A stretch of DNA of 64,000 nt from Naegleria gruberi (lineage: Eukaryota): NCBI GenBank assembly GCA_000004985.1, contig GG738919.1; one strand, 5' to 3'. The translations under genes and the position numbers were made by a program. Within the stretch, counting starts at the first letter, position 1. Each line of letters begins with the position of its first letter. A model generated the notes under the pieces. The model had not been told where the DNA came from and searched no databases. It saw only the letters and a program-made list of their open reading frames with translations. Positions 47,501 to 63,610 of the stretch are shown in pieces.

Positions 47501-47771
47501 AATAAATTTTAATATTCAATTCATCATCGGAAGAAGTTAAATTATTTGAAAGATAATTTCGAATTTGTTGTAATGAAGAACATGGACTGGAGGGAGATAG
47601 ACAAGGAAGATTCGACTCATTGTTATTTGTATTTTCATTATAGAAGAAGGTTAATTGGAGAGAAAGAGTGAAGGGAAGAATGGATAATAGAAAAAGAAAG
47701 GCAAGATTTGGATTCATTTTTTTAATATTGAAAAAGATGAAGATCCGATAACAATACAGCCCCATCGACAT
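44544..47771 (-). CDS. receptor protein kinase (TKL-type): signal peptide, large ectodomain with parallel beta-helix/PMP-like GGAIY repeats, one TM, cytoplasmic kinase domain
   Basis: 1075-aa single ORF with an ATG start. Ectodomain repeats NGGAIYSERSF, GNGGAIYSSNSF, KGGACYGE. TM helix IAVSTIFGVILLLILLGFGAFLTT. Kinase motifs GEGSHGSVYLAQW, VAVKSLK, HRDLKCGNVLLD, ICDFGLSKL, ILYMAPE. Confidence 0.8.
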   Translation of the reverse strand: MSMGLYCYRIFIFFNIKKMNPNLAFLFLLSILPFTLSLQLTFFYNENTNNNESNLPCLSPSSPCSSLQQIRNYLSNNLTSSDDELNIKIYLMSNLTKPTFINNNRKLINLTISSYLLEDIQNGTNSLIIGNRKDYYYITQSEWDVLESISYLSKQCDQFILSNVKLSNLKIDSASSSKIPLWMIDSCILENVELNYYADLLIIQKSTMYKCSLWSYLYPALIHNSTLLNCSLSTAKIRIENGLIVNSNIQGKSKVYNDNIIDFGMNDSIFKQSVIAITSSEQIIFTSNQFEGSTLFIMSVRAIIMKECKMEQTNNVWIGSESILVSAISLSNNSSIQVIGNIQAKFESMNFSDNVEPLSFQQVNDLSIESCIFERNRNALSINNNGKQKLDSERIRIIECTFRDNWSNQGGALYLNEAKLTTANCLFINNKASNGGAIYSERSFITDRFSKFISNQAIGNFEGCLSVKDCGNGGAIYSSNSFFYFSGSNFEYNLAVKGGACYGEVRVFQTSNIGNDATYSGNFIYFPQDNRFLKSCVVSSDGALSGQCGSSHIQQVLWKTSNSKSIYSSTSNTIPKLSLYPGQQITLEIIQIIDEFNNTLTSLQALPVVSSINSKSSIIIMHEKEANNTIMNLSFEWCEGESNFNIQVSLSEFLYNFEIGINVEKCPFDFGYEGLPTSRVCKFKNYSAIAVSTIFGVILLLILLGFGAFLTTQIGKRLFRLHKKDKRESQIAKKIIDKKFVFGEISTPLLTNIQTKSSNNLLIPIEDIEISKRIGEGSHGSVYLAQWNGINVAVKSLKTDDELLEDEFEHEASLLNSLRHPAIVRLFGISISSNTRYMVVEYLENGSLETAIANSKSGRKKLNLKEKIEILSGVSKGMDYLHSLKPLSLIHRDLKCGNVLLDANLKPKICDFGLSKLTSNSGSFSMTMNLGTILYMAPELIGSGQEIGNALDVYSYSIIMYELFFEEKPFFSNSPKIHKFSQSPHQDSLALSVPVMVVRGERPKIPWNNNEELEVWLREFIEPFEKKNSLDHETVCNVCSDYVELMKQCWNSIPSKRPSFREITQYLEKIYSKLK

Positions 47772-48157: not shown

Positions 48158-49417
48158 ATGCTTCCAAAATCCAAGTACAGTCCCAACAATTTTCGAAAAT
48201 ATCAAACCACACCCAAGAAACGTAAAACTTCATCCGATTCCAATCTGGCAAATGAAATTGTCGATTTAACTCTCGATGAAAATCATATCATTTCCATTGA
48301 TGATGATGAGGAGGAGCAAATTCATCACTCCGAGAGAGTAAAATGTATTTTAATTGATCATCATCATAACGAGTTTAATGATGAAGAAGAATTTGAACTG
48401 ATGAGTTTATTGATTGGTAAATTGAGAGGAAAGTTTATTCGGTCAGTTTCTCTGGAATTTGATTCGTGCTATCAGTTGAGTGTTAAAGCAATGAAGAAAC
48501 CATTTGATGTAAAGATTTCGTATAATCACAAATTGGTTGTTGTCTCTGATTATAATGCAAATTCATTGTTTCTTTTTGATTTGATAACAAAGAGATATTT
48601 GACGAAACTATATATTAAGAATCCACATTATATTGCCATAGAATCAAATGTGGATTATCGTGAAGGAACTGAAAATGATGCAATTATTGTAACAAGTGCT
48701 AGTAACCATGTTTACAAAATTGACATTAAATTGAGTGTGAAAAATGGAAAGAGTTCAGAAATTTGGAAAGTTGGTGGAACGAAACATTTCAATTCCCCAT
48801 GTGGAGTAGTTGTCTATCATAACAAGGCAATGGATAGAAGAGAATCCCATGAAAATTCATATTTCAGATTAAATCAACAAGAAAGAGATGAAAATCTTGT
48901 AATGGTTTGTGATTTTAATAATAATAGAATTCAAGTGTTGGGTTCAAAGTATGGAAATTTGATTTCTTCAATTACATTGATTCCTGGAATTGGATTACAA
49001 ACTCCGTGGATGATTGATGTGAATTCGTATGGAGATTTGGTTCTTTCTGAATTTTCGAATAGAGTTCAATTGATTAGATATGTTTCGAATGTGTACGATT
49101 ATATGGATATTGCAGAAAGGGAAGAGATGGATTCAGACGGATGGGTTTCTCTTCATCAATTCTCATCTGAATCAAATTCAAGAAATGTCAAGACCAAATG
49201 TTGTGGAATTGTAGTTGACAAGACCACTCAGAATGTAATAATATGTGATAGAGATTCGAATATCATTAGAATATTCAATGTGAATGGAATATTTATCAAG
49301 GAAGTGAGAGGAGTCATTAATAATCCGAGAGGAATCTGCATTGATGAAAGAAGTGGAGAATTACTCATTGTGGATTCGGAAAGAAAATGTGTTAAGGTAT
49401 TTGGACATGTTAATTGA
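48158..49417 (+). CDS. NHL-repeat (six-bladed beta-propeller) protein with basic/acidic N-terminal region
   Basis: ATG start. N-terminus has KKRK and an acidic stretch. C-terminal repeats of NHL type (DFNNNRIQVLG, SEFSNRVQLIR, DRDSNIIRIFNVNG, VDSERKCVKVFG). Confidence 0.6.
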   Translation: MLPKSKYSPNNFRKYQTTPKKRKTSSDSNLANEIVDLTLDENHIISIDDDEEEQIHHSERVKCILIDHHHNEFNDEEEFELMSLLIGKLRGKFIRSVSLEFDSCYQLSVKAMKKPFDVKISYNHKLVVVSDYNANSLFLFDLITKRYLTKLYIKNPHYIAIESNVDYREGTENDAIIVTSASNHVYKIDIKLSVKNGKSSEIWKVGGTKHFNSPCGVVVYHNKAMDRRESHENSYFRLNQQERDENLVMVCDFNNNRIQVLGSKYGNLISSITLIPGIGLQTPWMIDVNSYGDLVLSEFSNRVQLIRYVSNVYDYMDIAEREEMDSDGWVSLHQFSSESNSRNVKTKCCGIVVDKTTQNVIICDRDSNIIRIFNVNGIFIKEVRGVINNPRGICIDERSGELLIVDSERKCVKVFGHVN

Positions 49418-49711
49418 TTAAATTTGTGTAATTTTAATTTCAAATATTAAACCATTCAAAATTAAAAACTATCGGAATCTAATTGCAAATAGTAAGGAAA
49501 GGAATTATCTTATCGGAATCTGAAGATTCAAATTCAAGTCAACCAAGGAAAGGAATTATCATTAAAGAAGGAAATGATCATAAAAGAAAAATAGACAATT
49601 CTCTCAACATTCCTTATGAGGAGATTGAAGTGATTGAGTATTAATTCCATCAAGGATTGACCTTATTATTCTCTAATATATTTTAGAAACAAAACACTCA
49701 ACAAGAACAAG

Positions 49712-50176
49712 ATGAAACGTTTGCTTACTAGCGTCTTAATAATTGCCTGCCTTTCGGTACTGATGATGGACATGACACTATGCTTCTTCCAACAACCATT
49801 CAATAACATGTTCAACAATAATTTCCAATTTCCTGGAGCTGCAACAACTGGTTTTCCAAATATGTGGATGAATAACAATTATGCATGGAACAATCCAGCG
49901 GCAACTTATGGAGCAGCAGGTTGGAACAATTACAATCCAGCAACAACCTACGGAACAGGTTTTGGCTACAATACTGGATTTAATGGTGCAGCAGCTTTCC
50001 CATACGGAAGCAATAACAACTTTATCAAGAGTGGAGCCATTCCATCGTCAGGTTATGGTGGTCATCAAGTCATCACAACACCAACAAGAGAAGGTTATGA
50101 TGTAGAGTATCAATTCCCAGGAGGAAGAGCTAAAAAGTACTATTCTTCTCAAAGCTTTGTGCAACAAGTACTTTAA
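49712..50176 (+). CDS. small secreted Asn/Gly/Tyr/Trp-rich low-complexity protein
   Basis: ATG start. Signal-peptide-like MKRLLTSVLIIACLSVLM. Body rich in N, G, Y, W, A, F (NNYAWNNPAATYGAAGWNNYNP...). Confidence 0.5.
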   Translation: MKRLLTSVLIIACLSVLMMDMTLCFFQQPFNNMFNNNFQFPGAATTGFPNMWMNNNYAWNNPAATYGAAGWNNYNPATTYGTGFGYNTGFNGAAAFPYGSNNNFIKSGAIPSSGYGGHQVITTPTREGYDVEYQFPGGRAKKYYSSQSFVQQVL

Positions 50177-50212
50177 TAAAAGTTTTTTATTTTAGTAAGA
50201 ACGAATATTGGC

Positions 50213-50485
50213 TTACTTAGTCTTGGTGAAACCAATGAGAGCAGCGTTTTCTCTGAAGCATTGTCTGCAAATGTTAAGACCGTACTTTCTGATCATACCC
50301 TTTCTGTTACCGCAAACCTTGCATCTTCTAGCACCCTTTGAGTTATTCTTTGGGTGAGTGAACCAGATATTTTCGTAGCCCACTAGATATTGATGGTAAA
50401 GAACAAGTTGTTATGTTGGTTGAATCATGATGGTGAATTGTTTTGTCAGAGGTAAATTACCAAGTTGTTTAAAATGATACGTACT
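50213..50485 (-). CDS. rps29: 40S ribosomal protein S29 (uS14); start codon split by a phase-1 intron
   Basis: Exon 2 (50213..50382) encodes [55 protein letters not shown]. The only way to obtain a start codon is A (50485, the last nt of exon 1) plus TG (50382-50381). This uses a GTACGT donor at 50484-50479 and a CTAG acceptor, giving a 102-nt intron at 50383..50484. Product is 56 aa, matching S29 length. Confidence 0.8.
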
Positions 50486-51090
50486 GTTTATGTGGAGTAG
50501 TTAAGAATTTTTTTTTCAACAAAATTTTAGAGAGTTAACCAAGATGCCAATATTTTACAACGAAAGTTTTAAGCAGAGAATCACCAGCTGATGAAAAAAA
50601 TTGTCTTATTGTTGTAGAGCAATCATGAGCCTTATCATCATCAAAAGGATCATTAACTTCTCTCCAATGATGAAGATATTCGTTGGGAGATTTATTATGA
50701 AAGCATATTATTAATAATTCTAATTTTCGGAGAATATCATCATTATTTTGAATGGTTATTCTCAAGAATTAGAAATATCTTCATAATGAAGAACGAACAA
50801 TAATTCCTACTAATTATTATTTAACCTAATTGTGTAGTTTTACATTGACTAAGAACCCTCTACTATTTTACTTCTCTTGTTGACGCGTTAATATAATTTT
50901 GTTGGAACAAAGGCTTTGAATATTATAAACTCATCAATTCTATATAGGAACCAACCTTCAGGAACCGTTATCTTATAGTAAAAACATCCAACTACGGATT
51001 AGAGCTAAACACTAATGTCCAATTGTCGAGATATAATGATAACCATTGATAGCACGTCGTCTCACTCAAATAAATTACGCAAATAACATC

Positions 51091-53295
51091 ATGAACCTAT
51101 TTGCCATTCAGCAAGCTATCATCATAACAAGCCTCATCCTATTATTTAATCATGCTTCAGGAAGTAATGTCTGGCATCATTTAGATGAACAATTTCCAAC
51201 CAATGAATTTCATTTAAGAAGAACAAGACAAAACAATGATAGGAGTATTAGCTCATCCGTTTATTTATCAACTATTAAAAACACGTATCAGAAACAAGAT
51301 GCTTCCTTCCTGTCCTCTATCAAATTACTGTATGGAACTGGCCATTTGCTATTCTTCACCCTAAAGGAGAAGAACATTACAAGAGCTATTGATCTGAATG
51401 ATAGGAAAATAGCTGTAATTTCTCATGAGAATTTTGAAATGTATGATGCTGCTCTACAGTATTACTCACAGAGGAATAATGTAACAATTAGTCCTCAATT
51501 GGTTCATCAATTGGATTATCTTTCTAATGATTGTGTATGGGGAGATCCCATGAATTATTATGATGTTCTAGTAACAGATTTAGAGAGGTTACAATTTATC
51601 ATCCTCTACACCTCAACAAGCTTTACAAAAAAAGAAATAGGTCGATGGAGTGATTACCAAATGATTAGAGAGCTAACTGTACCAACTCTAGTCAAATATA
51701 TTGATAGAGGCATTAGTGACTTTTCTATCACTCTAAAAATGGATTATTTCATTAACAACATGTTAACAAACACAAAGAAAAGTGATTATTTTGATAGTAA
51801 TGTCTATCAGCTACAGTACCTGTATGGAAATGGAGGATTTCTTTCTAAGAATGATCAAGATTTTTTAAATTTCTACTTTCAAACTGGTCCTTTAAGATAC
51901 TATCAAAAGAATGAAACTTTTCAATTCAGTGCGAAATTTAATGGAACTTTGATTCCCCTCAATAATGTTTTCTGTTTTCTTCCAGAAGCGTCTTTTCATT
52001 CTGTTTGTGGTGATATTTCCTATTATAATTACCTTTTAGGTACCGAGGCAATTAATTATGTTGTGATTGTTGTTGGAGCTTTATATTATTTGAGCTTACT
52101 TACAGTTTGTAAAACCAATACTATCAAGAGAAGATTATTGACGCCTTACTTGATTCCAGTTCTTGTCATGTTCAATGCAGGTTTCTACTCTAGATATACT
52201 GACCGTGTATGCCATTCAATGAGAATGGTATTCTTACTAGCAAGCATAGCATTGTTAGTGGGTGTGTATGGCGTTACACTAATGAGATTCTACTATTTAA
52301 GAAATTTGTATTGCATATTGAAAAACATTCCTGAGAGATTTATCAAGTTGAATCGATTTTTATCATCAACTGGATTTGGAATTGTATCTTCACTTGTTTG
52401 TGGATGTGTCTTTGCAACAATTTCTATTATTTATGTTACTACTTACCATTTTACAAGAGAACAACTATTTTCGTATGGATCAGAGGTTGTTTTTACAAGC
52501 ACATTTATGGTCTTGTCATGTGCTTCTTGCCTCTGTGGAATAATAGTTTTTGGTATAGATATTATTGTAAATTGGAGAAAGATCAAAGCAAAAGGCATAA
52601 TACACTTTCTAACATTCGAGGATCCTTATCATGTTCGATTGGATATATTGACTTATGTTTGTGTTATTTTATGCATTTTGGCAATACTCTTTTTTAATGC
52701 TTTCTATAGAACTACGGAGTCATACATGATTCAGACACTTTTTAGATCAATAACCTTTATGTCAGTTTATTTCCTGTGTGGCTGGACAGCAATTATTATG
52801 GAGTGGATTAATTTCTTTAGAAGAAGGAAGAGAGGCCGCTCAACCAATAATTCCAGTGTTTCTCCAGATAAGAGGAGTGAATCAGGCGATGAATCTATCG
52901 AAGAGCTTGTAAAGATTGATGCCTTCTTTGAAATGTTTAAATCATTTAGTGAAAAGGAGTTTTCACTCGAGAATTCCCTACTCTTTGAAAGATTTAAACA
53001 ATTGGAAAGCTCTTCTATTGGTGGAGAAGCCATCCCACCTAGAGAGATTGAAGATCTTTATGATTCATTCTTTAGGCCCTACGCTATTTATGAAGTTAAC
53101 TTTTCATATAAAACAAGGAGGGATATTGAAGCCATTTTTCAGTCCAAGAAGGGCATTTCAATCAATGATTTGAAAGCCATTATTGAATTTGATCTATTGA
53201 TGAATATGAAAGATACATTTGAAAGATTGAGAATGACTGGCGAGTTTAAAAGATGGCATATTTCCAAATCAATTCAATCCATGCAAAGCATTTAA
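51091..53295 (+). CDS. 7TM-RGS protein: signal peptide, ~300-aa extracellular domain, seven TM helices, C-terminal RGS domain
   Basis: The ORF-track start at 51046 is TTG; the first ATG is at 51091 (MNLFAIQQAIIITSLILLFNHASG signal peptide). Seven hydrophobic helices between about residues 330 and 600. C-terminal RGS motifs FSLENSLLFERFKQL, YEVNFSYKTRRDIEAIF and LLMNMKDTFERLRMTGEFKRW. Confidence 0.65.
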   Translation: MNLFAIQQAIIITSLILLFNHASGSNVWHHLDEQFPTNEFHLRRTRQNNDRSISSSVYLSTIKNTYQKQDASFLSSIKLLYGTGHLLFFTLKEKNITRAIDLNDRKIAVISHENFEMYDAALQYYSQRNNVTISPQLVHQLDYLSNDCVWGDPMNYYDVLVTDLERLQFIILYTSTSFTKKEIGRWSDYQMIRELTVPTLVKYIDRGISDFSITLKMDYFINNMLTNTKKSDYFDSNVYQLQYLYGNGGFLSKNDQDFLNFYFQTGPLRYYQKNETFQFSAKFNGTLIPLNNVFCFLPEASFHSVCGDISYYNYLLGTEAINYVVIVVGALYYLSLLTVCKTNTIKRRLLTPYLIPVLVMFNAGFYSRYTDRVCHSMRMVFLLASIALLVGVYGVTLMRFYYLRNLYCILKNIPERFIKLNRFLSSTGFGIVSSLVCGCVFATISIIYVTTYHFTREQLFSYGSEVVFTSTFMVLSCASCLCGIIVFGIDIIVNWRKIKAKGIIHFLTFEDPYHVRLDILTYVCVILCILAILFFNAFYRTTESYMIQTLFRSITFMSVYFLCGWTAIIMEWINFFRRRKRGRSTNNSSVSPDKRSESGDESIEELVKIDAFFEMFKSFSEKEFSLENSLLFERFKQLESSSIGGEAIPPREIEDLYDSFFRPYAIYEVNFSYKTRRDIEAIFQSKKGISINDLKAIIEFDLLMNMKDTFERLRMTGEFKRWHISKSIQSMQSI

Positions 53296-53327
53296 TAATT
53301 TAACATTTCTTTGTAATTTACACTATT

Positions 53328-54218
53328 TTACAATTTCTTTTTTCTGAAAATTGAAATAAATATGATAATGACACACTTGAACAAACCAATCAACATGAAA
53401 CCATGTGAAATTGCAAAGTACAACATTCTAATCATTTTCATTGACATGTCACCAGTTCCATCATTCTTTCCTCCATAACTTGAAGTGCCTCCCCAAGTAT
53501 ACAGCTCAAATTCATGAATATTAGCTTTTGGATTTCTCTTAATAAAAGACAAGAATGATCCTGCCTTATAACAAAAAGCAGCCAATGCAAGAACAGCTCC
53601 AATTTCATAAATAATAAATCCAACATGAAACATTCCACTGCTCACCTTCTCACCAGTCATGACATAACTCAAAAAGAGCAAGACAACAAGTGTGAGAGGA
53701 ACAAAAACACCCAATGAGAAGAAATGGCCATGAATTAATGATCCCTGTTGATAGGCATAATCTCCAACCTTACTAAATGGAACACTATTCTTTGTCAATT
53801 CTCTAAAAACAAATCCCGATGAAATGGCACACAAAATCATGATACCAATAAACACAATCATATGTTTTCCAATCCTTAAATAATAAGCAGGTATTTGAGT
53901 GTGTAATTGTACCATATCCTTCTTATTGGAATCCGAACAAGATTGATTCTTAAAAGAAGAACAAGAACGTTGATTACTACTAGTAGTTGCTCCTTCCTTT
54001 AACAGCGAATTTTCTTCATCAGATTCCTCATCCAACAATATACTACTACTCTGCTCTGTTGCAGAAGTGTTATTAATACGATTATTCTTTTCTTCTCTTA
54101 TCATCATTAATTCTTCTCCTTCATCATGATCATCTTCAATAGGATTATTATTTGGGAAGGATTTCAAATTTTTAGAGAGTGGATCATCGAGAGTAACGGG
54201 AGAACATTGTTTCGACAT
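53328..54218 (-). CDS. four-TM membrane protein with acidic N-terminal region
   Basis: 296-aa ORF with an ATG start. Four hydrophobic helices in the C-terminal half. Family not recognised. Confidence 0.45.
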   Translation of the reverse strand: MSKQCSPVTLDDPLSKNLKSFPNNNPIEDDHDEGEELMMIREEKNNRINNTSATEQSSSILLDEESDEENSLLKEGATTSSNQRSCSSFKNQSCSDSNKKDMVQLHTQIPAYYLRIGKHMIVFIGIMILCAISSGFVFRELTKNSVPFSKVGDYAYQQGSLIHGHFFSLGVFVPLTLVVLLFLSYVMTGEKVSSGMFHVGFIIYEIGAVLALAAFCYKAGSFLSFIKRNPKANIHEFELYTWGGTSSYGGKNDGTGDMSMKMIRMLYFAISHGFMLIGLFKCVIIIFISIFRKKKL

Positions 54219-54484
54219 TTTTTTTTGTGGATCTTCTACTGAAAACGGAGTTTTTTTTATGGATTTCGCAGACTATTGTACAAATAAGGTAAAATTTAAA
54301 GTCAATATCATTTTGTTGTGAACAGTTGAGGGTTTACAAAAAACTAAAAAGTTGTAAACTTTTCAGTTGAAGGTAATGAGGTGGATTACGGTTCTTGACT
54401 TTTGTGCTACATGACTGTTTAAGAACCTGAAAGTGCCTTTAAAACCTGTCATTAATCCATTTACAAACAAAATGTCAGTTTTTG

Positions 54485-54874
54485 ATGGCACTGACATTTA
54501 TTATTATATGTCTGTTACTGTTCAATTATAATCCAACCGCTGCCCAGTCAAATGCCAACTTTACTGGAACATCACAGTTTATTCAAACCATTGATTCTGC
54601 CATGAACGAGTTAGCTCAAGACACAAGCTTCTCTTCCTATGTCAGTAACAATCATCCATTCAGTGTTCCAACATGTTTAGGTAAAGTCAACTATCCATCT
54701 AATCCATTCCCATCCACAATGACAGAAATTATCTATTGTACTCATATTCTTCCAGTAGATGAGGATATTTGGTCTCGTCTCTATAAGAAAGTAGGCGATG
54801 GATTGACAGCAAAGATCAATGCAAAGTATAAATTGAATTTAAAGGCTAAATACATTGGAATTTATACTTCCTAA
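54485..54874 (+). CDS. small secreted protein
   Basis: The ORF-track start at 54482 is TTG; the ATG is at 54485. Signal-peptide-like MALTFIIICLLLFNYNPTAAQ. 129 aa. Confidence 0.4.
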   Translation: MALTFIIICLLLFNYNPTAAQSNANFTGTSQFIQTIDSAMNELAQDTSFSSYVSNNHPFSVPTCLGKVNYPSNPFPSTMTEIIYCTHILPVDEDIWSRLYKKVGDGLTAKINAKYKLNLKAKYIGIYTS

Positions 54875-55285
54875 CAATCTTATCTTTCAATTTTGGATCA
54901 AAATAAATGGTTTTAACCAACTCCTCAATGAAATTATTTGAAATATTCACATCAACAAACGAACACTGTTGGATCATTTGAATACACTCCACAGAATGGA
55001 GATTAATGGTAAATGTTTTCAATTTTGGATACAAGTCGTGTATGGAATAAAGTATTTTCAACGAGTTCCTTAATAAATCTTCTGAAATCGAGAAATCTTT
55101 AACTTCTTGTAACGACACAACTAACCCACGTAATCAAGGTAGGAGAAAATTTCATGAAGAATTTCTTCAAGGTAGATTTGCAAGCATTTAATATGGCATA
55201 TTAATTTTGGCGGTAAAGTTTTTCATTGATTAAGGGAGACAAATTTGTGGAAATTAAAGAAGAATTTATTGAATAGAATGCATAT

Positions 55286-57667
55286 TTATTGTAATATTAA
55301 TATAAAATAAATAACAATCATGCCAATTGTCATTGCCATATTTGTAAATCCATTGTAAATACTCAATGCTGATCCAAGAACCATTGAATTGACTCCTCTC
55401 TTTGAGCTAAAAGTTGAAGGTTGAGGTAAAACTCTATCTCCACATCTCTCACCTCCAAATCCACTCTTACATGAACAAGTATTGATGGAAGTGCAATTTC
55501 CATTTCCGGAACATGCTAATGGATCATTGTAAAGAGTTCCAAAACAGAGTGGAAGACAAAAAGTGTTGGTTTCATCGGTGAGAGAGTTGGCTGGACAAGC
55601 TTGTTTGGAAATCTTGAGAATACGATTGGAGAAACCACCTGAAACTAACAAATCTCCTTTTGGAGTAAATGAAAGACCTGTAGCACTCATAAAAATGGTT
55701 GTTGCATCAGAATATGATTCAGGAATGCTACTGTTTTTGCTTCCAAAGATTGTTACCAGAATTCCCTTTGAAGTAATCTTTCGAATATTGTTTCCATCTG
55801 AGAAGAAAACTTCTCCCTCTTTTGAAACAGCAACCGATGAAGGATATCCAATTCCAGTACTTGTAGCAATTCCAAAATCTTCACCAACAGTGCTGTCTCC
55901 ATTACCTGCCACTGTTGTAATATTACCATTCTTAGAGAGCTTTCTAATGAGATAATTATCATAATCAGCAATATACAAATCACCATTTGGAGCCAGTGCG
56001 ATATCTTGTGGACCACTGAACTTTGTCTTTGTTGCCAATCCATCACCATTGAACCCACCATCTTCCAACACTCCAGCAATGATACTCATCACTCCATTTG
56101 TAGAAATCTTTCGAATAACATGACTCGATCTATCAGCCACCAACAACTCACCACTCTCTGTCAAAATTACAGCTTGAGGAGAACCCAAACCACTCACAAC
56201 TGTATCAACAGTTCCATTCGATGCAAAAATCCTTCTAATTGCTCCATTAAACAAATCTGCAATGAAAATATCACCATTTTTGGAACATGCAATTCTGGTT
56301 GGTTCGTTGAACTTGGCCAACTTGGCATCTGATCCATCACCACTATAGCCATGGTCACCTGTGCCGGCGTATTGTGAGATAATACCATTTGGGGAGATTT
56401 TTCTGATTTTGTGATAGGCACTTTCGGCTATGAAAGTTTCGTCTAGAATGTTTGTGCAGGCATGTTTAGGATAGTAGACAAAGGCTTGTTGGCTGTTGTA
56501 GCCATCTCCTGTAAACTTTTTAACATCTCCAGTAAAGTCTGGTTTGAGGGTGAGAGTGATACTATTTCCTTTAGTGTCAACCTTTCGAATATACAAGTTT
56601 CCATTATCTGCAATAAACATTTCGCCCAAGCTTGATAGAGCAACACTGGTTGGAGCAGAAAGAAGGGCTGAAGTTGCAGGAACGTTTTCATCTTCTCTGC
56701 TATAACCACTACTATTTGGGACTCCAGCAACTGTTGAAATAATTCCACTTTTCGAAACCTTTCGAATAAGGGAATTCAAAGTATCAGCAATATAGACCTC
56801 ACCAGTGGATTCATAAAAGAAAACACCATAAGGTGTGTTCAGTAGAGCTTGCTTTGCTTGAGAACCATCTCCTCCATAACCATTTATGGTTCCATTTCCA
56901 GCAAAAGTGGAAATTATTCCATTTGCATCAATCTTTCGAATAACGTGATTCTTTGAATCGGCAATATACAATTCACCAGTTGAACTAATTGACAAACCAA
57001 TTGGACTATTCAATTGTGCTGTTTTGGCATTTCCGCCATCACCAGAAAATCCTTCTTCACCATTTCCAGCTATTGTTGAAATATTACCATTTAGAGAAAT
57101 CTTTCTAATCACATGATTTGATTTATCAGCAATATAAACTTCACCATTCGATGCTACTGCAACACCAGTTGGAGTATTCAATCTTGCACGAGTTGCCAAA
57201 CCATTGTCTCCACTGTAACCCAAGTCACCCTTCATTCCTGCCACAATTGTTTGAATTCCCTTCGAATTTAATCTAACAATGACACCTCCTACTGGATCAC
57301 TAATGAGCAAATCATTGGAATTTGGATAGAGAGCAACACCTCCTGGTTGAAACTCCAAATCCTTCGTTAAAGTTGTAATTCCACTCACAGTATCCAACAT
57401 TCTAATCTTGGTCATGCTATCCTCAGTCATGTAGAGAATATTACTCGAGGCAGAGATGGCAAACATGTTGGGACGAGAGAATACGAAAGAGGATGGTATA
57501 TTACTTCCCTCCTTCTCACCAGCAACCACAACTGAAACATTGTACTTGATAGCTGTCAGTTGTGCATTCACTACTGCACAAAGGAGAAACAAGAGAATCG
57601 CAATATGACAGCAGACTTTGTGAATCTGATTGGTTTGCATGTTTTTTTTTGAAATGTGTCTTTCCAT
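55286..57667 (-). CDS. type-I membrane protein with ~11 tandem NHL repeats, an EGF-like Cys-rich module and C-terminal TM
   Basis: ATG start. Signal peptide. Repeated NHVIRKISxNGxISTIAGNG / GDGGxAxxAxLNxPxGx units. EGF-like CLPLCFGTLYNDPLACSGNGNCTSINTCSCKSGFGGERCG. C-terminal hydrophobic MAMTIGMIVIYFILIL. Confidence 0.7.
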   Translation of the reverse strand: MERHISKKNMQTNQIHKVCCHIAILLFLLCAVVNAQLTAIKYNVSVVVAGEKEGSNIPSSFVFSRPNMFAISASSNILYMTEDSMTKIRMLDTVSGITTLTKDLEFQPGGVALYPNSNDLLISDPVGGVIVRLNSKGIQTIVAGMKGDLGYSGDNGLATRARLNTPTGVAVASNGEVYIADKSNHVIRKISLNGNISTIAGNGEEGFSGDGGNAKTAQLNSPIGLSISSTGELYIADSKNHVIRKIDANGIISTFAGNGTINGYGGDGSQAKQALLNTPYGVFFYESTGEVYIADTLNSLIRKVSKSGIISTVAGVPNSSGYSREDENVPATSALLSAPTSVALSSLGEMFIADNGNLYIRKVDTKGNSITLTLKPDFTGDVKKFTGDGYNSQQAFVYYPKHACTNILDETFIAESAYHKIRKISPNGIISQYAGTGDHGYSGDGSDAKLAKFNEPTRIACSKNGDIFIADLFNGAIRRIFASNGTVDTVVSGLGSPQAVILTESGELLVADRSSHVIRKISTNGVMSIIAGVLEDGGFNGDGLATKTKFSGPQDIALAPNGDLYIADYDNYLIRKLSKNGNITTVAGNGDSTVGEDFGIATSTGIGYPSSVAVSKEGEVFFSDGNNIRKITSKGILVTIFGSKNSSIPESYSDATTIFMSATGLSFTPKGDLLVSGGFSNRILKISKQACPANSLTDETNTFCLPLCFGTLYNDPLACSGNGNCTSINTCSCKSGFGGERCGDRVLPQPSTFSSKRGVNSMVLGSALSIYNGFTNMAMTIGMIVIYFILILQ

Positions 57668-57925
57668 TTTCTCTACCGGATTAGTATATCCGATGAAATG
57701 GAAAGCTTACTGTATGGTGGTAGTGTCACATTGAACGAATGCTTTTTTCCAAATAAGTATATGGACAAACCACAGTAGAATGTTTGAATCGTTCAATATT
57801 CACGCACTGGAAGTAAAGTCTTCATCTATCAGTAATGGATTCTAGTTTAAAATTTGAATGTTGATGAATGGTCTAGTTGACTATGTTGTGTTTTCATTTT
57901 ACAAGATTTAGACAAATATTAAAAA
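57668..57925. promoter_or_regulatory. shared divergent (bidirectional) promoter region of the two NHL-EGF paralogs
   Basis: 258 bp lie between two ATG start codons that point away from each other. The region contains a near-palindrome CCGGATTAGTATATCCGA and an inverted 9-10-mer ATTGAACGA..TCGTTCAAT spaced about 50 bp apart. Confidence 0.4.
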
Positions 57926-60391
57926 ATGAACAAATCTTGTGTAACAGTTGTGCTTTTTTACTGCATCTGTTTATTGGGTTTCTTATTGCATGTTAAAGCA
58001 GAGCAATACGAAACCTCTGAAAATCCAAATTTTTCTATTCGTTACAATCTCACACTTGTTACTGGAAATGGTGATAAGAGAGGAACAGGCGTTCCTTACA
58101 GTATTGTAATGACAAGACCTGTGGGATTGGCATATTCTCAAAAGAGGAACACTATTTATCTTTCTGAAGGTAATTTGATGAGAAAACTTGACTTGACAAC
58201 TGGCATGACTTATATATTTGCAAATGTTGAAAATCCTGGTTTGCTTGCTTTCTCTCCTAATGAAACAACTCTCTACGTATGCTTCCCACTCTCAAATAAG
58301 GTTCAAAGAATGGACTTTCTTCCAAATGGAACCGAAATCTTTTCAGATTTTGCTGGAAATGGAAATTCTGGAAATACAGGTGAAGGTGGCTTGGCTATTA
58401 ATGCTCAATTGAATCAACCAAGTGGTGTAGCAGTTGATTCAAATGGTGATGTTTACATTTCAGATTCTGGAAATGGTTTAATCAGAAAGGTTTCCATCTC
58501 TTCAGGAATAATTACAAAATTTGCTGGAACAAGTCAAGGATTTGCAGGAGATGGTGGTTTGGCAAAGAATGCCAAGTTGAGTAATCCAAGAGGATTGAAT
58601 TTTGGTCCAAATGGTGATTTGTACATTGCAGATTCTGATAATAATGTGGTGAGAAGAATTAATTCGAGTGGAATTATTACAACCATTGCAGGTGATACCA
58701 CATCAGGTTATTCTGGAGATGGAGGTGATGCTAAATTGGCAAAGATGAAAAATCCAATCAATGTTATTGTCTCAAAAACTAATGAAATATTCATTAGTGA
58801 TGCAGATAATAATGTTATTAGAAAGGTTTCCAATGGAAATATTTCAACAATTGCTGGTAATGAATTGGTGGGTTCTGGATTCAGTGGAGATGGAGGAGAT
58901 TCTAAAAACGCATTGATTTCCATGGTACAAGGATTTGTATGGATCAATGATGAGTTGGTATTTGGAGATTTGGTAAATTCTATTAGAAAGATCAGTAAGA
59001 GTGGAATCATTTCATCCCTCACACAAAAACTTCCATTCACTGGTGATGGTGTTAATGTAGATTTGAGTTTTATACTCTATCCTAAAGGTATTTGTGTGAA
59101 TGAGAATACAGGTGATATTATTTTTTCAGAAGCTTATGGAGATACTATTCGAAAGATTGCCAAGAATAGAATAATTACAAAAATAGCAGGTATTGGAAGT
59201 GCCAATAATTCTGCTGGAGTTGAAAATGGGCAAGCGCTCTCTGTTTCTCTTCATATGCCAAGTCTTATTCAATGTCAACCAAATGGTGATGTTTATGTTG
59301 CTGATTATTTCTCCAATCTCATTCGTTTAGTTTCGACCAATGGCAGTATAACGAATGTTGCTGGAACTGGTGTTGGGGGATACAGTGGAGATGGTGGTAA
59401 TGCTAAATTAGCCAAATTGAATGCACCTAATTCAGTCAAAGTTTCTTCCAGTGATGAAATTGTTATTGCAGACACTTCCAATAATGTTATTCGAAAGGTT
59501 TTCAAAAATGGAACAATTATTACAATTGCTGGTACTATTGGAAGTCAGGGATACAGTGGAGACAATGGTCTAGCAATTAGTTCAGTTCTTTCCAGCCCAT
59601 CAGATGTTGCTATTGCACCAAATGGTGAGGTATTCATTGCCGATTGGGGAAACCATGTTATTCGAAAGATTGATACTAAAGGTATCATTACAACAATTGT
59701 AGGCAATGGCACAGAAGGTAATGGTGGTGAGGGATTTAATAGACCTCTAACTGCTCAATTGAAATTTCCAAAATCAATCTCACTTTCGAAAGATGGAGAA
59801 TTGTTCATTTCAGATTACAATGGAATTAAGAAATTAACAGTGAAAGGAACAATTGCTCATATTGCTGGAGTTGGAGATGATAGATATGTTCCTCTAACTC
59901 AAAATTACCTCTCAGATGCCACAACTGCCTCAGTTTTCACAGATCAAATTCACATCATGTCAAATGGTGATTTGATTATTGGCATTGGAAATGGTTATGA
60001 CAATGGCAAGATCTACAAGCTATCCAAACTCACTTGCACCCAACCAAACTATTCTCCAGACAGCACCAACACTTTCTGTCTCCCTTCATGTTTTGGTTTG
60101 ATTGCTGACAGCAACAATATCTGCTCAGGAAATGGTTCATGCATTTCGACCAATACCTGCCAATGCAAGCCAGGATATACTGGAGCCCAATGTCAATCTC
60201 GTATTGAACCAACCATTTCCAAACAACCAGCCTACCCTCTCACAAGTAGCTCCTCAATTCTTCCTCAAAAATCGAAAGGAGTGATTGGAGGAAATTCCAA
60301 TCCACGTGGAGTTGCTTCGAGTGTTTGCGTTGGAATGAAAATTTCTGGAATTTTGTTGATTTTATGGGTCGTTCTGATGTTTTGCTTTTAA
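57926..60391 (+). CDS. paralogous NHL-repeat + EGF-like type-I membrane (or GPI-anchored) protein
   Basis: ATG start. Signal peptide. NHL repeats (NNVIRKVSNGNISTIAG, NHVIRKIDTKGIITTIVG). EGF-like CLPSCFGLIADSNNICSGNGSCISTNTCQCKPGYTGAQCQ. C-terminal hydrophobic ISGILLILWVVLMFCF. Confidence 0.7.
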   Translation: MNKSCVTVVLFYCICLLGFLLHVKAEQYETSENPNFSIRYNLTLVTGNGDKRGTGVPYSIVMTRPVGLAYSQKRNTIYLSEGNLMRKLDLTTGMTYIFANVENPGLLAFSPNETTLYVCFPLSNKVQRMDFLPNGTEIFSDFAGNGNSGNTGEGGLAINAQLNQPSGVAVDSNGDVYISDSGNGLIRKVSISSGIITKFAGTSQGFAGDGGLAKNAKLSNPRGLNFGPNGDLYIADSDNNVVRRINSSGIITTIAGDTTSGYSGDGGDAKLAKMKNPINVIVSKTNEIFISDADNNVIRKVSNGNISTIAGNELVGSGFSGDGGDSKNALISMVQGFVWINDELVFGDLVNSIRKISKSGIISSLTQKLPFTGDGVNVDLSFILYPKGICVNENTGDIIFSEAYGDTIRKIAKNRIITKIAGIGSANNSAGVENGQALSVSLHMPSLIQCQPNGDVYVADYFSNLIRLVSTNGSITNVAGTGVGGYSGDGGNAKLAKLNAPNSVKVSSSDEIVIADTSNNVIRKVFKNGTIITIAGTIGSQGYSGDNGLAISSVLSSPSDVAIAPNGEVFIADWGNHVIRKIDTKGIITTIVGNGTEGNGGEGFNRPLTAQLKFPKSISLSKDGELFISDYNGIKKLTVKGTIAHIAGVGDDRYVPLTQNYLSDATTASVFTDQIHIMSNGDLIIGIGNGYDNGKIYKLSKLTCTQPNYSPDSTNTFCLPSCFGLIADSNNICSGNGSCISTNTCQCKPGYTGAQCQSRIEPTISKQPAYPLTSSSSILPQKSKGVIGGNSNPRGVASSVCVGMKISGILLILWVVLMFCF

Positions 60392-61094
60392 TTGTGTTGA
60401 ATTTGCATGATAATAAAGAATTGTTGTAAGAATCTTGTTGTGGTTTACAATAGGTAGGAGTGACAGAGCTGTAATGATGAGGAGTTTAATTTGTCTTTAT
60501 AAGGCAATGTGGGACATATACAAACTTACAATATTTTGGTTATGAAATTGACACAATCAAGGAAATTTGTGTTCCAATTCATTACCTTTCTGTCTTTTCA
60601 CCTCAATAGAAAAATATCAAAATCAAATCTATTCGAAAGCTTATATTTTGTATAAACTTAACAACTTTCGTGTTGAGGTTCTTTCAGTGACTATGTTAAA
60701 AATCCGCAAAATATCCATTTCATCTGAGCTCCAACATATCTCTGTAATAAATTCTTCATTTTTATAGTTTTCACTTGGAAGAGGAATTGAAATTGGAATA
60801 ATTGCGCTTTCGAATGGTCTTTCGCAATAATTCATGTAAAATATTGGGTATTGAGCCTCTTAAACAAACTAAACACTGCAAGATATGATTCTACAGATCC
60901 AAACAATGTTTAAACATCTTTCGGCTAGAGTTTCGGGCAATGTTTTTATGTTCAATGTTGGAAACTCTCGAGTTCGACCTTCAGTTCGAAAGGTGAAAAA
61001 ACAACGCTTGTCAGTCCACTTCTAAATACCAACTTTAAAAAAAAGAAACTTCTTAACTACGCACAACCTATCTAGTTTCGTTTAGTGTTTAGTT

Positions 61095-62393
61095 ATGGTT
61101 GCCATCATTAATACGCCAACAATAGACGAAACGAAGAATAATTTCAATAATTCTTCATCAGTAGCAGCTGCCTCAGCTATTACAACATATTTCAACAATA
61201 ATAATATTGGAAACGTTTCGAATAACATGTTAGTGCCCAACAAAACAACAAAACATTGAATTAGTAACGGCTTCACAAGATGATAGTATTAATAACAATT
61301 CTTTACAAACAATAACACCGCTCTATCAACAACATGGAAATTCTTCGATAGGTGTGGAAAGTAACGTTTCGTCTACTTTAGTTCAACCAATTCAACAAGA
61401 AAGCGAGAGTATCCAACAAATGATTTCGAATTTTAAATTGCGCCCATTAAGAGTTTACCAACAAGAACAAGAAAGAATGGAAAATCGTCAAGTTTCGTCA
61501 CATGCTCCTCAAAATTCCTCATCGTCGAGCTCTAGATTACAATTAGTTTCGCCTTCCCCTAATAATAGCCTTCTAATGTTCCTTCACTTACAAATTCTCC
61601 GCAAGTTAATAGTATTTCAACTGTTATCATTCCATCTAATAATCATCAAACTCTAGTTTCGAATAATTCCTCAACAAATCAAGCTAATGAAAATCCAATT
61701 CAAGTAGTTTATAGTGAAACAAATCAGCAACAATTTGATGATTCACAAGGATTGTTGGGTTCTTTTGATATTTCCTCAGATTCTACTAGTGGAAAGAATG
61801 GTCAATCGAATATCAAGTCATTTGTCAAAGCTGCCTTATTAATTTTCCACATTATTTGTCAAATTGTAATGAGTGGCATGATTGGTATTTCATTCATTCT
61901 ATACGATTGGAAAACCATGATCATTTTCACTCCCAAAATTGTCATTGGATTTCTAATAATTTTGGCAGTTTACAAAAAGAAGAATGGTTTCTTACATTTT
62001 CTATTAGGAAGCATCCTTTTAGATTTGATTTACACCACCATTTTGGTTGGTCTGAGGTTTTATGTAACAGCCAGACCTGGACAAGTTACTTTTCTGACAC
62101 AGGAATCGAATAATGCATTTACTGAACTTTCTAAGAATCCAATAGAGTTAGCACCAAATCATGTGCTTGTCCACACTCCAGAATGGACACACTCAAGTGT
62201 TGAATGGATTAAGGCAGCTACCCCAATTCCAGAATCACCAAATGAGCACACTGATATGCAAGGAACAAGTGCTGCAACTGAAGCTCAAAGGAAAAAGCTT
62301 CCTGGCTTGTGGTTTCAATTCGGAATTCAAATTATGGGCGGATTTATTGTTCTCCTGACAATAATATGGACACTCATAGTTGGTCAACAGTAA
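61095..62393 (+). CDS. S/N/P-rich protein with C-terminal 3-4 TM domain; one 58-nt intron plus one unexplained frame discontinuity
   Basis: ATG at 61095. Frame 0 runs to a GTTAGT donor at 61229. A GATAG acceptor places exon 2 at 61287 in frame +1. The coding signal then switches back to frame 0 at about 61546-61569, where two in-frame stops sit in a low-complexity stretch. It then continues to TAA at 62393 through hydrophobic helices. Confidence 0.35.
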
Positions 62394-62486
62394 ATAACCA
62401 TTCAATATTATTAAACATTTATTACAAAAACTTATTATTATTGAATACATTCAAATATGTAAAAAATTATCTCCACAACTTAAAGA

Positions 62487-63610
62487 ATGGCCGTTCGTTT
62501 GCTGTTGAGTGATTTTACTGATCGTGATCATCATTATGATTTCACTCTGGAAAATATGCTCACCCGAAAACTCATGTTCCGATTTGATCTCAAGTTAATT
62601 CCGAAGAGTTTCATCTGTCCATTTTCTACAAAGCGATCATCATCAATTAATGATTTTAATCTCAATGTAATTATTTAATTATATTTAACTATAATTTAAA
62701 AATTTAATATTTAATATAAATATTTATAATAATATATTAATTAAATGGTATTCAACTTAAGAATACGGAATTAAAATTTAAAAAACCAGTCGATGTAAAA
62801 TTCTCTCCTCAATTTCAATGTCTCATCATTTCCGATGAGAATGGACTCTATTTTCTCAATCATAAGAATGCAAGTTTGATGAAATTTGTGGCGGGAAAAG
62901 ATTTTGGAAGTTTGTGTGTTGATTATTGTGCTTCTGATTGTGGAAAATCAAAGGATTATTTGATTGTTACGACACAGTTCATTACTACTCAGATTAGAAA
63001 GTATGATTTGGAGAAGATATTGTTTCATTTCAATGATCAATTGTGGAGGAGTGGTTTCGAATGGAGCAATTCTCAATTGTGTAGAATGAGTGGAATTGCC
63101 TTTTCGAGGAGGAATGCAAAGAGTGGATCTTTGTTTGTTTCAGATTGGACTTATTGTTACATGTTAAATGCAGGAAATGGAAAAGTAGTGACAAGATTTC
63201 ATATATTCGATAGCTCTCTACAATACGAAATGAGAAGACCCATTCATGGCATTGAGTTTTACAAAGGTAATTTATGGCTTGTGGAGACTACTAATGATAT
63301 TTGCCATATTCATCAATTTAAATGGGAAAATAGCAAGTGGAATAATTTCAAAATTCATCAATTTAAATGCAAAGGTGCCACCTGTCGTGATATCAAGGTC
63401 ATTAATGAAAAATACTTGGCAATCAGTGATTCTAAAGGTAGAATTCTCCTCTTTGATTTGGTTGATTTCAAATTCCTTAGAAAGAGTCAAATTACTAGTC
63501 AAGACAAAATTACAATGGATGTAGGTCTGCAAGGAATTTGTTTCAATCCACTTTTAAATGAAATGTATGCATGTGACTTTGAAACTGATAAAGTTCACAT
63601 TATTTTGTGA
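62487..63610 (+). CDS. NHL-like beta-propeller protein; two exons
   Basis: Exon 1 is 62487..62666 (ATG start; donor GTAATT). The intron is 62667..62761, 95 nt, very AT-rich, with acceptor CTTAAG. Exon 2 is 62762..63610. NHL-like blades (ISDSKGRILLFDL, GICFNPLLNEMYACDFETDKVHII). The N-terminal region resembles the 48158 gene. Confidence 0.5.

Follow-up and report, generated by a model that had tools for sequence, protein, structure and literature searches.

An old head-to-head pair of putative GPI-type NHL-propeller surface proteins and a separate family of small TRIM-NHL-type propellers at one locus of Naegleria gruberi

A 64,000-nucleotide stretch of contig GG738919.1 of Naegleria gruberi (NCBI GenBank assembly GCA_000004985.1), hereafter the window, contains four genes that encode NHL-type propellers between 48.1 and 63.6 kb. 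For brevity these genes are designated g1 (48158-49417, + strand), g2 (55286-57640, with the open reading frame (ORF) extending to 57667, - strand), g3 (57926-60391, + strand), and g4 (62487-62666 and 62762-63610, + strand). The original prediction, which was made from the letters of the sequence, placed all four genes in one lineage-specific family of surface receptors or adhesion proteins that continues to grow by local duplication. Our analysis separates them into two families. We consider it likely, with a probability of roughly three in four, that an old inverted duplication gave rise to g2 and g3, which would encode a pair of surface proteins of the glycosylphosphatidylinositol (GPI) type, and that g1 and g4 belong to a separate family of the TRIM-NHL type. 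Both sets are new, uncharacterized members of the well-known NHL-propeller kind. In GenBank, they are labeled only as "predicted protein" (the genome was published in 2010), and a search of the literature and its supplements for Naegleria NHL genes and for the four locus tags found nothing.

All four genes corresponded to annotated proteins. The ORF of g1 (NAEGRDRAFT_53769) encodes 419 amino acids with 100% identity to EFC37322, which is carried by a scaffold of 216,243 bp. The 784-amino-acid product of g2 (NAEGRDRAFT_74930), when read from the second ATG, is exactly EFC37371, and the 821-amino-acid product of g3 (NAEGRDRAFT_74931) is exactly EFC37325. g4 (NAEGRDRAFT_81947) consists of two exons, as read from the sequence, namely exon 1 with 60 codons (62487-62666, +) and exon 2 (62762-63610, +), which encodes a degenerate six-bladed NHL-type propeller; these are separated by a very AT-rich intron of 95 nt with GT..AG borders (62667-62761, +), and the spliced translation of 342 amino acids is exactly EFC37327. 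Pfam and hidden Markov model (HMM) searches, together with these exact protein matches, bear out the presence of four NHL-type propellers in this part of the window. No further NHL signal was detected in the 64 kb by two independent six-frame HMM scans, in which the next-best expectation values (E) were 0.34 and 0.65. The window is nuclear DNA of N. gruberi with a GC content of 0.31-0.38 throughout. Bacterial contamination of the contig was excluded by the eukaryotic neighbors, the spliceosomal intron in g4, and a GC content of 0.36-0.38, which is near the window mean.

Both g2 and g3 encode an NHL array of the bacterial or teneurin type with a blade period of about 56 residues. g2 matched TEN_NHL (PF25021) at 193.6 bits (E = 6e-57) and NHL (PF01436; Pfam cut-off, 20 bits) at 126.2 bits (E = 1.5e-37), and g3 matched the same families at 168 bits (E = 4e-49) and 110.9 bits (E = 1e-32), respectively. 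About 11 blades had been proposed for each protein; direct reading, HMM searches, and the structural model of g3 instead gave 12 in each. The AlphaFold2 model of g3, with a predicted local distance difference test score (pLDDT) of 80.7, contained 48 strands that form 12 four-stranded blades, and these may fold most simply as two six-bladed propellers (6 + 6). The sequence and fold matches of g3 in the Protein Data Bank (PDB) included a teneurin-like protein, teneurins, SOQ1, NHLRC2, and the PknD-derived "Pizza" proteins. The array is followed by an eight-cysteine module, which is composed of a two-cysteine linker and a six-cysteine EGF-like domain, at 55442-55597 (-) in g2 (cysteines 691-742) and at 60035-60193 (+) in g3 (cysteines 704-756). 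In g3, EGF_2 (PF07974; cut-off, 22.1 bits) scored 28.7 bits (E = 1.7e-6) and EGF (PF00008; cut-off, 21.5 bits) scored 21.6 bits. On the other hand, EGF_2 scored 15.9 bits in g2, which is below the cut-off, although all six cysteines align with those of the EGF domain of g3. The EGF module that had been expected in both proteins is therefore recognized by Pfam in g3, whereas its assignment in g2 depends on the cysteine-conserved alignment to g3. A Ser/Thr/Pro-rich stalk lies between the eight-cysteine module and the hydrophobic tail of g3, and a short stalk is also present in g2. The proteins contain 8 (g2) and 13 (g3) N-glycosylation sequons.

The two proteins are paralogs that share one secreted architecture and are encoded head to head, as originally proposed. 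BLASTP aligned them in a single collinear segment with 37% identity over about 800 amino acids (E = 7e-138), and their amino-acid identity ranged from 37 to 40% overall. This value alone proves little because g3 is equally similar (30-43% identity) to scores of bacterial multi-NHL proteins, which outrank g2 in a database search; the non-repeat parts were therefore tested. The cysteine/EGF module at the C-terminus was 50% identical between g2 and g3 (E = 3e-20), with eight equally spaced cysteines and the family-specific motif TNTFCLPxCFG in both, and the atypical N-terminal blades were 32% identical (E = 1e-16). The C-terminal module and the atypical N-terminal blades were absent from the 120 best NHL matches and from N. 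gruberi NAEGRDRAFT_53411, a 1074-amino-acid paralog that is referred to below as P0047. The similarity of the pair thus extends beyond the repeat consensus, and the possibility that the two genes share nothing else fails. Furthermore, the blades corresponded by position. The mean score of matched blades (blade i of g2 against blade i of g3) was 83.6, compared with 55.7 off the diagonal, a difference that none of 100,000 permutations reached, and the pairing was clearest for the atypical blades 1, 7, 11, and 12. These results indicate that g2 and g3 descend from one gene with 12 blades. The homology of these adjacent genes is collinear over their full length and includes the non-repeat modules, as in local duplicates; their adjacency is clearly more than chance, and the head-to-head arrangement is the expected product of an inverted local duplication. 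A mirror-image segmental duplication around the spacer was rejected, since the flanking membrane proteins (53328-54218 and 61752-62393) were not significantly similar (E = 0.016, confined to hydrophobic segments) and g4 has the wrong orientation.

Searches for the C-terminal module outside the pair were less productive. A profile search of proteins retrieved one EGF fragment of 99 amino acids only, and this search missed even the cluster of the query itself. Fourteen metagenome loci from a scan with the module were rejected as unrelated, because their tblastn matches were confined to the EGF/Cys part (residues 685 onwards) and included no NHL blades. Those metagenome contigs (L002-L013, several of them JAESGV01...) have a GC content of about 0.40 and carry long tandem EGF-like arrays. 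The arrays share the motif NTC[QS]CK[PS]G with the module of g2 and g3, and some also share the preceding Cys-linker pattern.

The duplication that produced g2 and g3 is old, because the synonymous sites are saturated (proportion of synonymous differences between g2 and g3, 0.66). Similarity between the DNA sequences has been reduced to the blade period of 168-171 nt, at 60-75% identity. Recent gene conversion was rejected, as the longest matches between the genes were 94 nt at 72% and 31 nt at 90%, and the copies have not been homogenized since the duplication. A metagenomic contig of a close relative (97-98% amino-acid identity) contained the same two genes, also head to head. The saturated synonymous sites, the 37-40% identity, the lack of near-identical tracts, and the presence of the same two genes in the related strain do not bear out the proposal that the family is still expanding. 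Relative to this strain, synonymous divergence (dS) was about 0.05, and the ratio of nonsynonymous to synonymous divergence (dN/dS) was 0.15 for g2 and 0.29 for g3. Both ORFs are intact in the two strains. Neither copy is a pseudogene, and both are under purifying selection.

The small genes g1 and g4 differ from the pair in architecture. g1 has an acidic, His-rich N-terminus that is followed by a six-bladed propeller of the TRIM-NHL type (Pfam NHL, 47.6 bits, E = 1.2e-12). The spliced protein of g4 matched no Pfam family at E up to 10. In an exhaustive HMMER search, residues 64-340 of g4 matched the N. lovaniensis protein P0127 (E = 1.8e-5), which passes Pfam NHL at 1.6e-15 and matches g1 over its full length at 1e-22. 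An HMM that was built from g1, P0127, and the N. gruberi protein P0129, with g4 left out, identified exon 2 of g4 when all six frames of the window were scanned (E = 3.7e-15). g4 combines homology to proteins that pass NHL with a six-bladed NHL-like fold. g1, g4, P0127, P0129, and a further N. gruberi protein, P0130, align end to end, and exhaustive searches detected this family only in Naegleria and in a few metagenomic fragments. Hydropathy analysis found no signal peptide or hydrophobic segment in g1 or g4, which are presumably small cytosolic or nuclear proteins.

Among PDB entries, the profile of the g1/g4 family matched the TRIM-NHL domains of Thin (4e-19), TRIM71 (2e-15), TRIM2/3 (1e-13), and Brat (4e-6). 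Since g3 matches the teneurin-like protein, Pizza, SOQ1, and NHLRC2, the two sets represent different branches of the NHL superfamily. The propellers of TRIM-NHL proteins (Brat, TRIM71/LIN-41, TRIM2/3, Thin/TRIM32, and Mei-P26) are the ones most similar to those of g1 and g4. However, neither g1 nor g4 is a TRIM protein: Pfam detected no RING, B-box, coiled-coil, or filamin domain in either, and only 55-110 residues, predicted to be mostly disordered and modeled with low confidence, precede the propeller. Each protein of this fast-evolving family would thus consist almost wholly of a six-bladed TRIM-NHL-type propeller, preceded by a short disordered N-terminus. Brat and LIN-41 bind RNA. By analogy, our best guess is that g1 and g4 may act as protein- or RNA-binding scaffolds in the manner of TRIM-NHL proteins, without the ubiquitin-ligase part. 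By eye, residues 1-58 of g1 (48158-48330) contain a basic PKKRK motif that resembles a nuclear localization signal, and two stretches in the N-terminus that join a hydrophobic core to acidic residues, EIVDLTLDE and HIISIDDDEEE, resemble SUMO-interaction motifs.

The gene model of g1 in GenBank differs at 49395-50102 from the ORF that is described here. EFC37322 (481 amino acids) replaces the natural end of the ORF (...CVKVFGHVN*) with a tail of 68 amino acids, which is encoded at 49899-50102 in another frame across the neighboring ORF of 154 amino acids (49712-50176). This tail probably derives from a mis-predicted intron of about 500 nt, because the homologues end at the last NHL blade. In g4, the intron contains an AT-rich 20-nt tandem repeat in 2.5 copies (62690-62736).

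g1 and g4 are not recent local copies of each other. They form the least similar pair in the family (24.6 bits), whereas the closest relative of g1 is an N. lovaniensis protein (98.6 bits) and that of g4 is P0130 (55.5 bits). In N. lovaniensis, 153 bp separates two head-to-head genes of this family (337 and 353 amino acids; PYSW02000016.1, L016 8834-11062), whose pairwise score is 138 bits; local pairing is thus seen again in the g1/g4 family of another Naegleria species. No large NHL gene was found within 10 kb on either side of that pair. The N. lovaniensis locus is bounded (L016 1-386) by a gene of 893 amino acids with a Phage_integrase (tyrosine recombinase) domain, which may belong to a Crypton- or DIRS-like element.

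Whether the proximity of the two families has a meaning depends on how rich the genome is in NHL genes. The chances seem to us evenly balanced that g1 and g4 lie beside the pair by coincidence in an NHL-rich genome, with g2 and g3 being the only meaningful unit. The families differ in architecture, topology, and best structural matches, and each family also has members elsewhere in the assembly (P0047 on a scaffold of 236 kb and P0130 on one of 17 kb), all of which is consistent with chance. In contrast, if there were a few dozen NHL genes among the approximately 15,700 genes, the occurrence of four within about 11 consecutive genes would be very unlikely, although this is our own estimate and not a computed value. 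A functional link between the two families is conceivable.

The hydrophobic segments of g2 and g3 are confined to the extreme N- and C-termini, as determined by hydropathy. The N-terminal segments have the features of cleavable signal peptides. That of g2 (57563-57640, -) reads MQTNQIHKVCCHIAILLFLLCAVVNA|Q, with a putative cleavage site (...VVNA|Q) that has V at -3 and A at -1, and that of g3 (57926-58000, +) reads MNKSCVTVVLFYCICLLGFLLHVKA|E, with a similar putative site (...HVKA|E; V at -3, A at -1), the region being modeled as a helix (residues 2-27). At the other end, g2 terminates in the hydrophobic tail MAMTIGMIVIYFILILQ (55289-55351, -), which comes after a G-S-A triplet, and the end of g3 (60308-60388, +) consists of A-S-S, a spacer of six residues, and the 16-residue ISGILLILWVVLMFCF, which extends to the C-terminus; the triplets contain candidate omega sites that were placed by eye. 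The tail of g3 was modeled as a helix (residues 808-820). In both proteins, a hydrophobic stretch of 16 residues reaches the last or next-to-last residue without a basic cytoplasmic flank, and the small-residue triplet is located 6-9 residues upstream of the tail. A signal peptide, a terminal hydrophobic peptide without a cytoplasmic extension, and a small-residue triplet are, as judged by eye, together typical of a GPI signal. The tails of g2 and g3 are thus interpreted as putative GPI-attachment signals rather than as anchors with a cytoplasmic tail, because the hydrophobic stretch reaches the C-terminus, lacks a basic flank, and follows a small-residue triplet. Of the signal peptide and membrane tail that had been predicted, the former holds, whereas the latter is present as a hydrophobic segment that has no cytoplasmic part and resembles a GPI signal rather than a membrane anchor. 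The paralog P0047, which has a similar NHL array and stalk, terminates in a hydrophobic tail in the same way as g2 and g3. Evidence for GPI-anchored proteins in the genus Naegleria has been presented in a pangenome paper (PMC9928731).

Alternatively, g2 and g3 could be type I transmembrane receptors with essentially no cytoplasmic tail, as the single C-terminal hydrophobic helix that is predicted in each would allow. We consider this rather unlikely, since the stretch comprises only 16 residues, runs to the last or next-to-last residue without a basic stop-transfer flank, and follows a small-residue triplet, and the tail of P0047 is alike. If the GPI reading is correct, a cleavable signal peptide would direct g2 and g3 into the endoplasmic reticulum for secretion, and the proteins would be glycosylated and attached to a GPI anchor. 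In their mature form they would then be exposed on the outside of the plasma membrane, raised on a short stalk, with the EGF domain as a spacer below two propellers that may be stacked or side by side. NHL and YWTD propellers usually bind through their top faces, and those of g2 and g3 may accommodate ligands such as substrate, prey, or other cells. A role in surface ligand binding or adhesion is therefore plausible from the sequence features. A GPI-anchored protein cannot signal on its own; a GPI anchor would make adhesion or the recognition of prey or substrate, possibly with a transmembrane partner, likelier than the function of a classical receptor. Several points weigh against this picture. 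The GPI anchoring is proposed from tails that were judged by eye, the 6 + 6 arrangement is proposed from the blade count and from tandem-propeller fold matches with low TM-scores, and the g3 model is of low confidence (pLDDT < 50) in the EGF and tail regions.

The fold matches include the LDL-receptor family (LRP6 E1-E4, LRP4, and LRP2), in which tandem six-bladed YWTD propellers are followed by EGF domains and bind ligands at the cell surface. Alignments with the g3 model extended over 690-820 columns, with TM-scores of 0.23-0.25. However, these receptors are built from YWTD rather than NHL repeats and have an EGF domain for each propeller; thus, the likeness to g3, although it is the closest in design, is an analogy and not family membership. 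Teneurins and bacterial teneurin-like proteins (9ifo, 6fb3, and 6vhh) provided the best Pfam and PDB matches to the propellers of g2 and g3, with E = 1.4e-64 for 9ifo. Like g2 and g3, teneurins are extracellular and combine an NHL propeller with EGF-type modules, and the NHL repeats of the pair are of the teneurin type. Teneurins have the type II membrane topology and carry eight EGF repeats on the N-terminal side of one NHL propeller, together with an FN-plug, a YD-repeat shell, and a toxin-like C-terminus. The orientation is reversed in g2 and g3, which begin with a signal peptide and end with an anchor; they have twelve blades and one EGF domain after the propellers, and Pfam detected no YD, RHS, or Tox domains in them. 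g2 and g3 are therefore not teneurins. Within N. gruberi, P0047 has the same type of NHL repeat as g2 and g3 and likewise possesses a Ser/Thr-rich stalk and a terminal hydrophobic tail. P0047 and g3 are 39% identical, which is the same level as that between g2 and g3. On the other hand, P0047 contains about 18 blades, lacks the EGF module and TNTFCLPxCFG, and is encoded on another scaffold.

Bacterial multi-NHL surface proteins and the PknD sensor (1rwi) have a repeat unit of about 56 residues, as do g2 and g3. Pizza and PknD were matched by g3 at 1e-28 to 3e-13 in the PDB. The consensus GDGG-A..A.L..P.G[VI]..D..G.[LV]YIAD..N..IRK[VI]...G.I.T.AG is common to the pair and the bacterial proteins. 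However, the latter carry sorting tails of the type IX secretion system, Ig/Big domains, or kinase domains, whereas g2 and g3 have a eukaryotic signal peptide, an EGF module, N-glycosylation sequons, and a GPI-like tail, and have typical Naegleria genes as neighbors, including one with a spliceosomal intron. The named proteins among the 120 best matches were all bacterial (30-43% identity) with the exception of P0047. These matches and the identical design of the repeat unit are the basis for a further possibility, namely, that the 12-blade array of the pair, together with the array of P0047, is a bacterial surface-protein module that was captured by horizontal transfer and would later have acquired eukaryotic parts, namely a signal peptide, an EGF domain, and a GPI signal. 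We regard such a transfer as doubtful. The evidence from top matches is weak because the database is dominated by bacteria and similarity in a repeat consensus is a poor guide to phylogeny. If true, the transfer would provide a bacterivorous amoeba with a receptor family for prey or substrate recognition and would parallel, as an independent case, the bacterial origin that has been proposed for the teneurin ectodomain; unless it is true, the locus has no bearing on a long-standing open question.

Two further explanations treat the four genes as descendants of one local ancestor. It is very improbable, in our view, that the cluster is the relic of an ancient NHL island, in which a single ancestral gene was duplicated locally and the lineages then diverged, one gaining a signal peptide, blades, an EGF module, and an anchor, and the other remaining small and intracellular. 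The co-location of all four genes fits this scenario, and some cross-detection was observed: the small-family HMM weakly detected g2 (E = 4e-11) and g3 (4e-6), and the HMM of g2/g3 blades detected g1 (4e-6). However, the cross-detection goes no further than the general NHL repeat consensus, and the best structural matches differ. In addition, the flanking genes are without paralogy, g4 is not oriented as a mirror-image segmental duplication would require, and the small-family pair in N. lovaniensis has no large NHL gene nearby. Least likely of all is the single expanding family of surface receptors or adhesins that was originally proposed, for although all four NHL-type genes of the 64 kb lie within 15.5 kb, g2 and g3 are neighboring paralogs, and the N. 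lovaniensis pair demonstrates that local duplication occurs, g1 and g4 lack a signal peptide and a membrane segment and are of the TRIM-NHL rather than the teneurin/bacterial type, no two members of the small family are less closely related than g1 and g4, and the saturated pair retains no recent conversion or duplication tracts.

The spacer between g2 and g3 (57641-57925) is 285 bp long between the annotated starts and 258 bp long between the ORF starts. The latter value was the one given in the original prediction and stands as an ORF-start distance; the real spacer is probably the longer one. At 57640-57667, the upstream start of the g2 ORF (MERHISKKN...) spans a poly-A/T run, and in the related strain (L001 2923-2982) this run has one base less, which places the upstream ATG out of frame. 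The true start of g2 is probably the second ATG at 57640, since the annotated protein starts there and the upstream ATG is out of frame in the related strain. The spacer is typical in length, as the range among nine head-to-head ORF pairs of the window is 239-701 bp. Short inverted repeats, which had been noted as a feature of the spacer, are indeed present, the best being one of 9 nt (ATTGAACGA / TCGTTCAAT) with its arms 50 nt apart. However, an inverted repeat of at least 9 nt occurred in 21-23% of shuffles and in 20% of the other 258-bp tiles of the window; this is chance level, and the repeat was rejected as regulatory evidence. The spacer is nearly identical in the related strain, but the coding sequence is conserved to the same degree, and the conservation therefore carries no information. 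The two genes may share a bidirectional promoter, although nothing in the spacer sequence singles out such a promoter.

The practical value of the analysis is modest. For adhesion or the recognition of prey, g2 and g3 are reasonable candidate proteins in an organism that serves as a model relative of the pathogenic N. fowleri. A second outcome is a small family of stand-alone TRIM-type NHL propellers that evolves fast and is restricted to Naegleria. For genome scans, the locus is a caution that a cluster of repeat-domain genes can mix unrelated families. Paralogy must be shown on the non-repeat parts, because repeat proteins that are 37% identical, such as g2 and g3, may be no closer to each other than to bacterial proteins.

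The neighborhood of the four genes is rich in genes for secreted and membrane proteins, including a kinase, membrane proteins, and two small ORFs with leaders. A receptor-like kinase of 1075 amino acids (44544-47771, -) is located head to head with g1 at a distance of 386 bp; it has an N-terminal hydrophobic segment, repeats of the Chlamydia-PMP type, a membrane segment, and a C-terminal Tyr/Ser-Thr kinase domain (3.5e-53). The gene at 51046-53295 (+) encodes a multi-pass membrane protein of 749 amino acids with a weak C-terminal match to RGS (E = 0.004, below the Pfam cut-off), and may be of the seven-transmembrane (7TM)-RGS type. The two small ORFs at 49712-50176 (+; 154 amino acids) and 54482-54874 (+; 130 amino acids) have N-terminal hydrophobic leaders and no Pfam matches, and the first is rich in N, G, Y, and F. 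A further neighbor in the window encodes a P4-type phospholipid flippase (P4-ATPase).

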